Origin: a virus
Lineage: Duplodnaviria; Heunggongvirae; Uroviricota; Caudoviricetes
IMG/VR virus record: IMGVR_UViG_3300044984_001938
DNA: 64,000 bases
Strand: one strand, 5' to 3'
Shown here: positions 28,695-49,504 of the stretch, piece by piece
How the letters are laid out: every line of letters starts with the position of its first letter
How positions within the stretch are numbered: position 1 is the first letter of the stretch
Position numbers and translations under genes: made by a program
Notes under the pieces: model-generated
What the model was told of the DNA's origin: nothing
Seen by the model: only the letters and a program-made list of their open reading frames with translations
The model's database searches: none

Positions 28695-28823
28695 TTTTTT
28701 TCCTAATATGCGTATGCCTACCAGAATCTGCTTATGTCGCCGTAACCGACTACACAAGACTGTGGGGTGCTGCCCTCTGCTAGAAGGCCGAAAACCCCAC
28801 GGTTTTTGATTTCAGGTAATTTT

Positions 28824-28979
28824 TTACTCCGCGGGTACAGATGCGTCCTTGGCTTGCTCTTGGATCCCCTGAATCAATACAACAACGTCTTGGTAGGGGC
28901 GTGTGGCCAGATACTGCAAGATGCCGTTGATCAAGTTTAAAGATAGTTCAATTTTTTTGTCGTTCATTTTAATTTCCAT
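28824..28979 (-). CDS. Small tail-fibre-adjacent protein (51 aa), not in ORF track
   Basis: MEIKMNDKKIELSLNLINGILQYLATRPYQDVVVLIQGIQEQAKDASVPAE*. Confidence 0.65.
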   Translation of the reverse strand: MEIKMNDKKIELSLNLINGILQYLATRPYQDVVVLIQGIQEQAKDASVPAE

Positions 28980-29070
28980 TTATGTTTTGTTACCTAAGAT
29001 ACGCCGGATGCGACCCCAGGAATTTTACAATGTTGTCACATATATTTATGCCGCCGCAAATTACACATAA

Positions 29071-34263
<5,193 letters not shown>

Positions 34264-44962: not shown

Positions 44963-45907
44963 ATGAATATAAAAAGTACTGTTATCTATTGGATACATCT
45001 ACCGGAACACACTAATGCAGCTACCGACGGATATGTTGGAGTCTCTAAAGATTATGCCCGTAGGTTAAAAGGACATTTGAATGACATTAATAACAAGAAA
45101 CATAAAAATCCACATCTAATACATGCAGTTAGGAAATATGGATGGGACAATCTAATCAAAGATGTTATCTTATGCGGTGAAGAATCTTATTGCTATGAAA
45201 TGGAAGAAATACTAAGACCAAAAAAAGCAACTGGATGGAACATTGCTCCCGGTGGACATAGAGGACCAGGTTGGACAAAAGGCAGACCTAAAAGTAAAGA
45301 ATCCATCCAAAAACAAAAAGCGTCAATTGCACCTTTCAATGAAGCAAAACGACTTGAAAGAAACAAAAAAAGAGAAGAAAGATTGCATCAACGAGAACTA
45401 AACCGGCTATCCAAAATTCGTCAACTGGAAGAAAAAAATAAGGTCAAAGAAATTAAAAAATTAGAAAATGAAGAAAAAATAAAAAGGCGGGTCGGCGAGC
45501 GTGATAGAAGAAAACAAAAAGCAATAGACAACGGCACATACGGTTCAAAACCCAATTACAATAATCGGCCATTCTGCAATAAATGTAACAAGAATCACGC
45601 AGCAGTGAACTATAAACGTGCCGGTGTTACACATTACAGAAGCATATGTGATGAATGTAGTAGGAAGAAGCAGAAGCAAAAACCACAAAAAGCCAATTGG
45701 ACTAAGAGTGGTTATAAGAAAAAAGCCACATGTGATTTATGTGGCTTTAAGAGTTTATTCGTTACACAAATAACAGTATTTCATGTTGATGGGCACTTGG
45801 ATCACAATGAACAAACTAATCTACGCAGCATTTGCTTAAACTGCATAGAAGTTGTGAAAAAGAAAGAGATTACTTGGAGACGGGGAGACCTTGAGATTGA
45901 CTATTGA
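44963..45907 (+). CDS. GIY-YIG-like homing endonuclease fused to a C-terminal Zn-finger/HNH-like domain
   Basis: VIYWI..DGYVGVS..RRLKGH and GWNIAPGG at the N-terminus; CxxC pairs and FHVDG..N..NLRSICLNC at the C-terminus. Confidence 0.65.
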   Translation: MNIKSTVIYWIHLPEHTNAATDGYVGVSKDYARRLKGHLNDINNKKHKNPHLIHAVRKYGWDNLIKDVILCGEESYCYEMEEILRPKKATGWNIAPGGHRGPGWTKGRPKSKESIQKQKASIAPFNEAKRLERNKKREERLHQRELNRLSKIRQLEEKNKVKEIKKLENEEKIKRRVGERDRRKQKAIDNGTYGSKPNYNNRPFCNKCNKNHAAVNYKRAGVTHYRSICDECSRKKQKQKPQKANWTKSGYKKKATCDLCGFKSLFVTQITVFHVDGHLDHNEQTNLRSICLNCIEVVKKKEITWRRGDLEIDY

Positions 45908-46599: not shown

Positions 46600-47397
46600 C
46601 TAACCTTGGACCCACGTTAAGGGAAAAGAAAAATCCACATACTTCTTCAAATCTTCAATGAGTAATTCCATTGCTGCTTTACCTTCTGCTTTCATAGCAG
46701 TACCGTTCAATGATGTGCCACCACCCGGACCAGCAATAGTTCCAAATTTTTCACGGGCTTCTCCGATCATAAGTTTAAGATTAGCTAAAACAAAGTCACC
46801 GATCCATACTCCAGCACCCGGGTCTTGCAGTAATATTTCTTCTGTCTTTTGTACATCGGCCCATATCAATACATGTTCCCCTGATCCTTTTGGATCTCGC
46901 ACAATACGCAATACTTTGGACACTGGATTAAATGTATATGTTACATAACCACCAAACATTCTTGCTGCTAATTTAACATACCCTGCATAGAAATCATATG
47001 TTGCCATACCACCGGCATAGTTATAGTTAAGTAAGTATGTATTCAAAATAGCACTGGAGAAAGGATCAAAACTACTACTTGACGGGCCTGTTTCTAAACC
47101 AATTGATCTACGGAAAATACTTCTAACATTGATAAACTCTGCGGGAAGAGTATATGTATCTACATTTTTCTCAATAGTCATCAATATGTACGATTCCTCA
47201 GTGGCTGCTTGTGCCCTTTGACGATATATCTTTATGGCATAGGTGTATGCTGCTTCATAATGCTGCGGGTCTAATTCAAGGTCAATCATACCATCACCTA
47301 AACGATATCTTAAATTAGTGAATAATAACTCTTTTAATTCATCTAGGTTTAATCCAGTTGGTGTAGAAAGAACTGATGCTGTTGGATATGTTGACAT
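46600..47397 (-). CDS. Neck / head-tail adaptor protein (T4 gp13-like)
   Basis: RLGDGMIDLEL, IGEAREKF..IAGPGGGTSLNG..MKAEG. Confidence 0.8.
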   Translation of the reverse strand: MSTYPTASVLSTPTGLNLDELKELLFTNLRYRLGDGMIDLELDPQHYEAAYTYAIKIYRQRAQAATEESYILMTIEKNVDTYTLPAEFINVRSIFRRSIGLETGPSSSSFDPFSSAILNTYLLNYNYAGGMATYDFYAGYVKLAARMFGGYVTYTFNPVSKVLRIVRDPKGSGEHVLIWADVQKTEEILLQDPGAGVWIGDFVLANLKLMIGEAREKFGTIAGPGGGTSLNGTAMKAEGKAAMELLIEDLKKYVDFSFPLTWVQG

Positions 47398-47459
47398 ATA
47401 TGTTACCTAATAAGTGTATTTATCTGGGTATTACTGATTTGTTTATTCTATTTCTAGGC

Positions 47460-47865
47460 AAAGGCGAGTAGATATAAAATACCTACTCGCCAAAAAGGTG
47501 TCTATTCCTGAGGCCCTTACGGGAGTGCGATGATGAATTCAAAAATTACAGTGGAGGATTGTCTATGTCTCACTAACCCGTAAAGGGATTTTGCCGTATT
47601 CGCTGTGTGTTAAATCTTCAATTCATCAGGTAGATTTAACCAGCCCGCGCCCTCTATCGCTATCACTATGACGCGGCAATGCTTATAGTAGATTACTCTA
47701 TCTCAACCAGTAAGGTACAGGAAACGTGAACTGCTAGTGAGCAGGCGTTTAGGCATCCCGAAGGGTAGTCCTGTAAATTGGATGTTGGCATTCATCTTAA
47801 CTACCGTCACCGCATGGATTGTGGACGGATTAATGGCACACTTCAAGGCGGCGCTGCCTATAAGC
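47460..47865 (-). ncRNA. Candidate large structured non-coding RNA (~400 nt)
   Basis: Only long intergenic gap in the window, GC-enriched, multiple stems, C(UUCG)G and C(GUAA)G loops, 9-bp loop-distal pairing, ends in a 9-bp hairpin. Confidence 0.6.
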
Positions 47866-47874
47866 CAATAATGA

Positions 47875-47896
47875 AAGTAGGGCTACTGCCCTACTT
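47875..47896 (-). terminator. Hairpin/terminator after mazG
   Basis: AAGTAGGGC-AGTA-GCCCTACTT followed by T-rich tract. Confidence 0.65.
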
Positions 47897-47897
47897 A

Positions 47898-48338
47898 TTA
47901 AATATCATTAGCTTTACGATTCTCGCTATACAATGCGTCAAACTTTCCACCGGGGTAGCGTGACTCTAGTTTGCGTACATTCTCTGCAATTACTTCATTA
48001 GGATCAAGTTTCAATGCACGACATGCATTTATCCAGTACCACATAATGTCACCGAGTTCACGTTTCATATGGAAGACATTTTCATCAGTGAGGGGTTTAC
48101 CCTGAAAAATGATCTTCTTGGGCACTTCAATAAATTCACCACTTTCTGCGGCTAATCCCAAACATGCAGTAAGTAGCAACGGGATGTTAACATCAGGACC
48201 GTGCTTCATCTCACCGTCAACTAATTCGTAATTAGCATCAAGCCGATCACATGTATCCATAAATGTAGTCAAGTCATTGCTTGCTTTGCTTGTTACAGCT
48301 TCTACGAAATCTTTGTATTTGTTTAAATCTATATTCAT
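47898..48338 (-). CDS. mazG: MazG-like NTP pyrophosphohydrolase
   Basis: LGLAAESGEF, ELGDIMWY, NVRKLESRYP; TAATG coupling gives start at 48338. Confidence 0.85.
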   Translation of the reverse strand: MNIDLNKYKDFVEAVTSKASNDLTTFMDTCDRLDANYELVDGEMKHGPDVNIPLLLTACLGLAAESGEFIEVPKKIIFQGKPLTDENVFHMKRELGDIMWYWINACRALKLDPNEVIAENVRKLESRYPGGKFDALYSENRKANDI

Positions 48339-49504
48339 TACCATGCTTTCAAAATTATCATTGACTCATTAAACCTGCCATTCGGCGTAGAGGCTACTGC
48401 TTTAATATCTGTGAAATATTTTCGTGCAGCCGGCTTGCTCCCCATAACTTCTTTAAGTTGTTCCCCTGGTTTGCGTAGTGTTTTGACTTCGCTCTTTGCT
48501 GAATCAAATCCTAGCAGTGTACTACCCTTAACAGTAAACACCTTGCTATACTCATCAGCAATGTAGTGATGAAGGCGCCGCTTTGCAGTATCATAGGCCC
48601 ACGCTTCACTTGCACCATGCAACTTTGTAGGGTGAATGCTAATCAAGTCTAGCTTTGCAGCCGCATCCTTGAACACCTTCAAGTATTTCAATTTAGCAAC
48701 AATCTTTTCAACAGGTACAGCCTTCTTCTTGCGAGGAGCCTTGCTTGCTTTCTTAATGCTAATGTAGCTGTTCAAGTCACTGAGAACCCCATCAATGAAT
48801 TTGAGAATGTTACGAATCTGAACCTTACCTAGAAACCTGTAACCCTCTTTAAGATACTCGTCACCGTCAGAAAGTTTCTGAAATTCAGCTTGTTTGCGTT
48901 TCCAGATTTCAACAATGATTGGGATATGCTGTGGCATAACATTATATTTTGCCACGATATCAACTGTCTTTTCTGTTGCTTTACCTTTAGTAACAAAATC
49001 GTCAATCATCCCTTCCATTTCACCTGCTGCTTCTCCCGCCTTTTCTTTTAGAATTTCCTGAATATTGGGGCGTGTTGCTACTACAGTTTCCTTAGCAATA
49101 CTAGTTTGACTAGTTTTCACTTCTGTTTCGGTTAGTGTCTTGATCAGTCGTTTGATGTCATTTTGCAAGGCAAGTTCTTCATGCTCAGTCAATTCTAGCC
49201 CGCGCATTGTCATTCGTGCTATCCAGCACAATGTCAGAATGAATTCACTTTCATGCACTTTCCTAAGCAATTTGGCTTCATCAGGGCGTTTATTGTAATC
49301 TAGATATTGTGCCATCAAATCCCTAGCATCTTTTTTGCTATAGAATCGGGTGTACCAAGTAAAGCTGCGGGCAAGAGCCGAGAATCGTGCTTCGGTATTA
49401 GGTTGAAGTGGGAAGAAAGGTTCTTCACCCATATATTTTGTATCAGCATCACGTGGGTTGAGTGCTTTTACAAAATGCTCATCCGTATGTTTGCGTGTAG
49501 CCAT
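48338..49504 (-). CDS. Hypothetical early protein (388 aa)
   Basis: Long ORF directly behind a perfect sigma70 promoter. Confidence 0.65.
   Translation of the reverse strand: MATRKHTDEHFVKALNPRDADTKYMGEEPFFPLQPNTEARFSALARSFTWYTRFYSKKDARDLMAQYLDYNKRPDEAKLLRKVHESEFILTLCWIARMTMRGLELTEHEELALQNDIKRLIKTLTETEVKTSQTSIAKETVVATRPNIQEILKEKAGEAAGEMEGMIDDFVTKGKATEKTVDIVAKYNVMPQHIPIIVEIWKRKQAEFQKLSDGDEYLKEGYRFLGKVQIRNILKFIDGVLSDLNSYISIKKASKAPRKKKAVPVEKIVAKLKYLKVFKDAAAKLDLISIHPTKLHGASEAWAYDTAKRRLHHYIADEYSKVFTVKGSTLLGFDSAKSEVKTLRKPGEQLKEVMGSKPAARKYFTDIKAVASTPNGRFNESMIILKAW

Follow-up and report, generated by a model that had tools for sequence, protein, structure and literature searches.

Comparative analysis points to a previously undescribed ~420-nt structured RNA family in uncultivated freshwater jumbo phages

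The mazG-neck locus

The stretch of DNA analysed here, referred to below as the window, comprises 64,000 nt of a virus assigned to the Caudoviricetes (IMGVR_UViG_3300044984_001938). In this window a MazG-like pyrophosphatase gene (mazG) and a gene for a neck protein lie on the minus strand on either side of a gap of 500 bases (47398-47897), the longest stretch without an open reading frame (ORF) of at least 75 aa (Table 1). The initial annotation had described this gap as large, ORF-free and GC-enriched, a description borne out by a GC content of 0.445, compared to 0.395 for the whole window. The second-longest ORF-free gap (28758-29070, 313 nt) is filled by a 51-aa ORF followed by a terminator-like hairpin (28824-28979, minus strand) and folds no better than shuffled sequences; it is a small gene, and an RNA element was ruled out there. 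It is adjacent to a gene for a 1725-aa protein with long collagen-like Gly-X-Y runs (GATGATGATG...; 29071-34248, minus strand), presumably a fibre.

Both genes flanking the gap are complete: each matches its own PHROG profile end to end, and relatives that lack the insert described below have identical gene ends. The neck protein is ~35% identical to its counterparts in Rak2/121Q/K64-1-like jumbo phages. Other neighbours named by PHROG are a dNMP kinase and a tail sheath; between these two, on the opposite strand, lies a 314-aa ORF (44963-45907, plus strand) with weak matches to PHROG homing endonucleases of the GIY-YIG type, probably a mobile endonuclease. ARAGORN found no tRNA genes in the window. 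The DNA sequencing runs that contain this stretch are lake-water metagenomes.

A comparison of the window with loci L004-L080 indicated that the mazG-neck junction is an insertion hotspot. Depending on the phage, it holds nothing (a spacing of 46-55 nt), a small Cys-rich (Zn-ribbon) ORF overlapping the mazG stop codon (232-304 nt), a 232-aa ORF (L008/L009), a 312-aa repeat protein (L049) or a 1.7-kb insert (L062).

Table 1. Features of the mazG-neck locus and elements of the predicted RNA, in window positions (model index i corresponds to window position 47873-i).
Feature	Position	Strand	Evidence and remarks
MazG-like pyrophosphatase gene	47898..48344	-	PHROG 229, E = 9e-45; upstream neighbour; 148 aa
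Terminator-like hairpin + U-run	47875..47896	-	after mazG stop codon, directly before RNA; covarying equivalents in relatives
Whole ncRNA, ~420 nt	47449..47872	-	nhmmer and covariance-model homology, full length, ~140 contigs
PK1 5' strand, UUGGC	47864..47868	-	91.5% paired; 4/5 pairs changed on both sides (GC to AU, UA to CG)
Hairpin A, GGCA(G)CGC/GUGUGCC	47835..47858	-	loop consensus ACCU(C/U)(G/A)AA; 68.5% paired (MAFFT register), 3 pairs compensated; moderate support
Hairpin B, CCGU(C)CAC/GUGACGG	47804..47828	-	CCGUC/GACGG changes to CCCAC/GUGGG
Hairpin C, GAUG/CAUC	47796-47781	-	loop carries PK1 3' strand
PK1 3' strand, GCCAA	47785..47789	-	in hairpin C loop
Helix Px, UACAGGA/UCCUGUA	47775-47769 with 47722-47716 (47716..47775)	-	5/7 pairs compensated
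CUGC/GCAG	47744-47731	-	flanked by AAACG/CGUUU
Optional hairpin UAGA-GUAA-UCUA (GNRA loop)	47689..47700	-	15/44 sequences; 100% paired; 3/4 pairs compensated
Hairpin F, CCGCGUC/GGCGCGG	47645..47676	-	99.7% paired; 6/7 pairs compensated
PK3, GCGAUAGA (hairpin F loop) with UCUA-C-UCGC	47660-47653 with 47472-47464	-	GCGAUAGA invariant; bulged C
Helix Py, GCUG/CAGC	47644-47641 with 47605-47602 (47602..47644)	-	100% paired; encloses hairpin G
Hairpin G, 9 bp	47640-47609	-	all pairs compensated
PK2 5' strand, UGAUGAAU	47621..47628	-	hairpin G loop; 99.7-100% paired, 7/7 pairs compensated
Helix Pz, CAAAA/UUUUG	47593-47589 with 47544-47540 (47540..47593)	-	closes three-way junction
PK2 3' strand, AUUCAUCA	47531..47538	-	as for PK2 5' strand; 85 nt downstream of hairpin G loop
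Optional hairpin CCC-GUAA-GGG	47514..47523	-	absent from many relatives
Terminal hairpin, 13 bp in the window	47463..47491	-	invariant 3' arm UCUACUCGC (47472-47464)
Late-promoter-like motif GATAAATA of neck gene	47417..47424	-	downstream of RNA; kept in RNA-less relatives
Neck / head-tail adaptor Ad2 gene	46600..47397	-	PHROG 211, E = 1e-21; downstream neighbour; 265 aa

Homologues and extent of the RNA

A blastn search of the gap against 50,697 phage records gave no match. A search of IMG/VR with the neck protein yielded 80 loci, most of them with the short 46-55 nt spacing, and only L002/L003 and L022/24/28 among them carry the insert of the window; compensatory changes became visible on aligning the four insert types. 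A conserved 19-mer from these inserts retrieved 63 viral loci, an unrelated motif from another part of the RNA 19 more true homologues, and a degenerate version of the 19-mer 52 further metagenome matches. In all, homologues were found in ~140 viral and metagenome contigs of uncultivated phages, the contigs measuring up to 387 kb, and the 60 distinct sequences of full length share 56-89% identity with the window. Several matches were set aside: those of the exact 19-mer in bacterial MAGs (L174-L176) and in L142 are due to chance, the alignment being limited to the 19-mer itself; those of the second pattern in L143, L147, L151, L158, L163, L166, L168 and L169 fall in a coding region of an unrelated phage; and that in L154 is another chance match.

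Conservation sets in just past the terminator-like hairpin of mazG and ends at a GCCUA(A)GAAU tail. Against the covariance model R1 the window RNA scores 170.4 bits (E = 5e-44) with all helices present, and the PK2 loop pairing, the GCGAUAGA loop and the GAGACAUAGACAAUCCUCC hairpin loop are all found within the match. The comparative evidence shows that 47449-47872 (minus strand) harbors the gene of a predicted ~420-nt noncoding RNA of a previously undescribed family, which is conserved across a large clade of ~360-kb freshwater jumbo phages, all uncultivated.

In ~90% of the copies the RNA lies directly upstream of the neck gene, following mazG or a small ORF after mazG, and on the strand of these genes. 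The initial annotation had looked to the same intergenic position in related phages for homologues; most carriers conform to this, yet the phages closest in neck protein proved to be without the RNA. A divergent group of RNAs occupies other intergenic regions, with mazG and neck absent nearby, and PHROG scans of the genes beside these copies returned only families of unknown function.

Secondary structure and covariation

Folding of the single window sequence gave a modest z-score of -2.7 relative to shuffled sequences, and the plus strand folds about equally well, so that one sequence proves little. The comparative evidence for the predicted fold is decisive. In the 44-sequence alignment a model of 88 pairs in 18 helices is 92.2% paired, as opposed to 35-44% when the pairing partners are slid; 59 of the 88 pairs have changed on both sides, and none of 500 shuffles reaches the observed covariation score. 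Over the different alignments the helices are 92-95% paired against 35-47% for slid partners, with 93.6% for the 3' domain in the 60 sequences and 95.3% for the metagenome set in a covariance-model (CM)-based alignment. RNAalifold recovered the nested helices independently from the 44 sequences (53 pairs, 34 of them with compensatory changes).

The stems listed in the initial annotation are all present at their minus-strand positions, and a covariation scan over all column pairs recovered them as well. The same scan added the long-range helix Px, an AAACG/CGUUU helix around CUGC/GCAG, the GCUG/CAGC helix, the three-way junction closed by CAAAA/UUUUG and two pseudoknots; Px, PK1, PK3 and three junction helices had escaped the first reading. 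The covarying pairs show a predicted fold of two domains tied together by three pseudoknots. The 5' domain consists of three hairpins (A-C) and the 7-bp helix Px, which encloses two more: the optional UUCG hairpin (47765-47757; loop 47762-47759) and hairpin E (47749-47723). Helices 6-8 of the model, in the Px region, are 100%, 97.7% and 95.8% paired. The 3' domain is made up of hairpin F, a helix carrying hairpin G and the three-way junction, in which Pz encloses hairpin H (47587-47577) and an AGUG..CACU hairpin (47574-47550), 88-100% paired and with most pairs compensated. Throughout the molecule the junctions and loops are invariant while the stems vary. The peripheral hairpins are optional, many relatives being without the UUCG and GUAA hairpins. 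A closing helix between the 5' end and the 3' tail (UAGG/CCUA) was rejected: divergent members give A.C mismatches, with the 3' side fixed.

The loop of the AGUG..CACU hairpin (47571-47553) carries GAGACAUAGACAAUCCUCC, which is near-invariant even in the loci retrieved with the unrelated search pattern. Within this loop, C5 and A10 of the near-invariant GAGACAUAGAC are jointly replaced by U and U in six sequences from several lineages (alignment A3); the covariation is not of the Watson-Crick type and may reflect a tertiary contact. In the same loop, the A of GUGAGA varies to C or U, uncompensated.

Among the accepted helices 81 G.U pairs stand against 20 A.C combinations, and the GNRA and UUCG loops are confined to the minus strand, as had been noted at the outset for the canonical tetraloops; the RNA is therefore read on the minus strand, like the flanking genes. 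Together with the 88-pair model, this upholds the original proposal of a large structured phage RNA encoded on that strand. No ORF is shared by the homologues in strand, frame or place (the longest ORFs have a median of 49 aa), and their indels are not multiples of three.

As regards known families, a cmscan of the whole 64-kb window with Rfam 15 gave no match at the gathering score, 47300-48000 had none at E<=10, and 12 homologue loci matched no family at E<=1. The covariance models of GOLLD, ROOL, OLE, HEARO and raiA match neither the window nor the homologue loci, tmRNA was found neither by ARAGORN nor by Rfam, and RNase P gave no Rfam match, in agreement with the failure of the first reading to place the RNA with GOLLD, ROOL, tmRNA or RNase P. 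A literature search found no description of this RNA.

Pseudoknots and the 3' end

PK2 is the loop pairing proposed in the initial annotation. The segments 47628-47621 and 47538-47531 are complementary, and compensatory changes preserve the pairing in all relatives tested. In the CM-based alignment of the metagenome set PK2 is 100% paired with 7/7 pairs compensated, and this pairing was not fitted, since PK2 had been left out of the model. In L181, L182 and L089 it is fully recoded.

PK3 is 100% paired in 44/44 sequences, with one compensated pair (C:G to U:A in 6 sequences of 2-3 lineages). Its 3' strand is the invariant 3' arm of the terminal hairpin, so PK3 and this hairpin are mutually exclusive. 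The final hairpin had been reported in the first reading as one of 9 bp; it is present, but with 13 bp. At 59.9% paired in the MAFFT register it appeared unsupported, a verdict withdrawn as a register problem once sequences were folded one by one: the hairpin forms in 42/43 representatives, always with the arm AUCUACUCGCC, the 5' arm varying in sequence and register. The L131/L181/L182 lineage has a 3' arm free of any hairpin and retains the PK3 complementarity. In the active fold, the 3' tail would be docked in the GCGAUAGA loop through PK3, and the terminal hairpin may represent an alternative or a 3'-end-forming structure.

Distribution and evolution

The R1 model detected no copy in five large contigs of RNA-less close relatives (up to 303 kb, 86% complete), so that the RNA is dispensable; it detected a single copy apiece in four carriers, one of which is a complete 364-kb genome. 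Two paralogues, L181 and L182, share a 277-kb genome that has terminal repeats; they lie ~30 kb and 251 kb into it, and the latter copy is upstream of the neck homologue. They have kept the architecture, and their PK2 sequences, CGUGGUGG/CCGCCACG and CCACAAUGU/ACAUUGUGG, are mutually unrelated and each internally complementary.

On a quick tree of 111 neck proteins, the sampling of which is biased by the way the loci were collected, RNA presence/absence changes three times, compared to a mean of 36 for shuffled labels. The basal clades carry the RNA, one large derived clade is without it, and the window together with L002, as well as the L127 group, carries it again. Window and L002 are nested among RNA-less relatives as sister to the RNA-less L004 (support 92/99). 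Judged from this tree, the RNA is ancestral, and was lost once and regained twice, once in the lineage of the window.

For certain phages the identity to the window is 87-91% in the RNA, as against 68-71% in the neck gene and 74-79% in mazG, and the homology with these phages begins ~25 nt inside the 3' end of mazG and ends before the neck promoter. We therefore read this as re-acquisition of a cassette by recombination at the same site. The few changes on the tree and an RNA identity exceeding that of the neck gene argue that the RNA is under selection. It may be described as an accessory but selected module, which would be inherited vertically and was presumably lost once and later regained by same-site recombination.

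Transcriptional context

The motif GATAAATA, located between the RNA and the neck start codon, occurs 15 times in the window where 4.6 copies are expected, a three-fold enrichment; 14 of the 15 copies are on the minus strand, and at least ten long ORFs are preceded by a copy at a distance of 4-37 nt. The motif resembles the late promoter of T4, TATAAATA, and is probably the late promoter of the window phage. RNA-less relatives keep just this motif in their ~50-nt spacer, which places the RNA upstream of the probable neck late promoter, on the mazG side.

No promoter for the RNA was found. In several contexts the RNA begins right at the stop codon of the ORF before it, and it is always on the strand of its neighbours. 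A terminator-like hairpin separates mazG from the RNA in many genomes, which weighs against simple read-through.

Transcription was checked in sequencing runs by way of Logan contigs. One metatranscriptome (X18, fish gut) contains a 226-nt contig over 47502-47724, along with neck and mazG contigs at similar depth; X18 is the only true RNA library with related contigs and could contain DNA, so that transcription, ends and strand are not established by it. Two runs listed as 'RNA-Seq' are probably DNA.

Possible functions

On balance we lean towards a folded RNA that stands on its own and is produced together with the mazG operon. Such an RNA would be transcribed as the distal part of the early/middle mazG operon, as suggested by its abutting upstream stop codons on the strand of its neighbours, and would not be a leader of the neck mRNA, since GATAAATA intervenes before the neck ATG and a ~50-nt spacer is all that RNA-less relatives keep. 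That it acts on its own is suggested by the divergent copies with neither gene nearby and by the two copies in the 277-kb genome. It would be compactly folded, either as a ribozyme-like core or as a scaffold for a phage or host factor. Invariant junctions and loops on variable stems, three pseudoknots and optional GNRA-capped peripheral hairpins are typical features of a catalytic or scaffold core, although no conserved protein partner was seen among the neighbouring genes, which weighs against this reading. The near-constant place beside the neck gene would also fit a local role in cis.

Such a role could be that of a cis-acting regulatory RNA which senses a signal and switches its 3' end between hairpin and PK3, thereby governing whether the early transcript entering the late gene neck terminates or reads through, or how stable it is. 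We consider this unlikely, while giving it some weight. The position directly upstream of neck speaks for it, as does the way in which two conserved, mutually exclusive pairings compete for the invariant 3' arm, an architecture like that of a regulatory switch. A third complementary segment, AUCGC (47531-47527), could also pair with the GCGAU loop. On the other hand, the terminal hairpin is followed by AUUGCC or UUUGCC and not by a U-run, neck possesses a promoter-like motif of its own downstream of the RNA and manages with a 50-nt spacer in relatives, copies are found away from any neck gene, and one genome contains two. Moreover, PK3 complementarity persists in the L131/L181/L182 lineage with its unsequestered arm, and we know of no precedent for a sensor of ~380 nt.

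Large RNAs with a comparable density of tertiary pairings have historically turned out to be ribozymes, cores of ribonucleoproteins or, recently, self-assembling RNA cages; to our knowledge, very few large RNA classes with this density supported by covariation are known, and almost none from jumbo phages. Covariation is blind to the difference between intra- and intermolecular pairing. In ROOL and GOLLD, covarying loop-to-junction pairings proved to be intermolecular bridges of RNA cages (10.1101/2024.12.08.627333). By analogy, the RNA described here might assemble with itself into a homo-oligomeric particle in which PK2 and/or PK3 form the bridges, which we regard as doubtful. If this were the case, the unrelated PK2 sequences of L181 and L182 would be orthogonal addresses keeping two assemblies apart, and the family would add a third, independent class to the natural assemblies made of RNA alone, one that infecting jumbo phages produce.

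It is less probable still that the RNA is a ribozyme processing itself or its transcript, whether self-cleaving, self-splicing or a degenerate intergenic relative of group I introns. A multi-pseudoknot core with invariant junction nucleotides would suit a ribozyme, GGACUACC is similar to the R element of group I introns and (A)CAAUCC to their Q element (a lead only), and the RNA sits in an insertion hotspot with the GIY-YIG-like endonuclease gene 1.5 kb away. Against this, neither Intron_gpI (RF00028) nor any ribozyme family gave a match at E<=10 in the window or 12 homologues, intact flanking genes leave no exons to join, a P4-P6-like domain is absent at the expected place and the order of the helices is not that of a group I intron. 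As a P3 of the group I kind, GGUAG/CUACC or GGUA/UACC was tried and rejected, since it overlaps hairpin B and never covaries.

Finally, the ORF-poor, GC-richer region, with a plus-strand ORF of 44 aa (47737-47871) encoding a hydrophobic stretch, could be taken for a DNA-level element (replication origin, pac or recombination site) or a small protein gene, a reading that is very improbable and largely refuted by the covariation, ORF and strand results, because compensatory changes keep pairs, G.U included, in a strand-specific manner, neither this nor any other ORF is conserved, and indels do not come in threes.

The ~140 natural variants are sufficient for structure determination and for the design of mutate-and-rescue experiments, while the loss in one clade followed by re-acquisition at the same site amounts to a natural presence/absence experiment among similar phages. 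Together with the recoded paralogues, they make the function of the RNA directly testable and suggest that phages carrying it gain a selectable benefit during infection.

Comparison with known RNAs

The pRNA of phi29 is likewise a phage noncoding RNA with pairing loops (intermolecular in pRNA), and it serves the head-tail connector, while the present RNA lies beside a neck gene. There is no similarity between the two, and pRNA is 174 nt long and essential, whereas the present RNA is missing from close relatives. With the group I introns of T4-like phages it shares a phage-borne nature, a size in the range of ~250-450 nt, a pseudoknotted core, GNRA peripheral hairpins and short R/Q-like motifs; it differs in being intergenic and without splice-site context, canonical P4-P6 or Rfam match, and in a helix order unlike P3-P9.

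OLE, raiA and HEARO, large orphan RNAs of bacteria, are of a similar size class and of similar complexity supported by covariation. They are found in Bacillota or IS elements and not in jumbo phages, none of them gives an Rfam match here, and the present RNA has no adjacent gene of the OapA/IscB type.

ROOL (RF03087) and GOLLD (RF01998) are large ornate RNAs of phages and prophages, GOLLD being, like the present RNA, known from lake metagenomes. All three are several hundred nucleotides long, phage-borne and multi-pseudoknotted, with conserved loops on variable stems and no associated protein. The present RNA matches neither of the other two in sequence or structure, is smaller (~420 nt), does not lie beside tRNA genes and occupies a fixed mazG-neck locus. 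The nearest known counterparts of this RNA are these two orphan large phage RNAs, ROOL and GOLLD.
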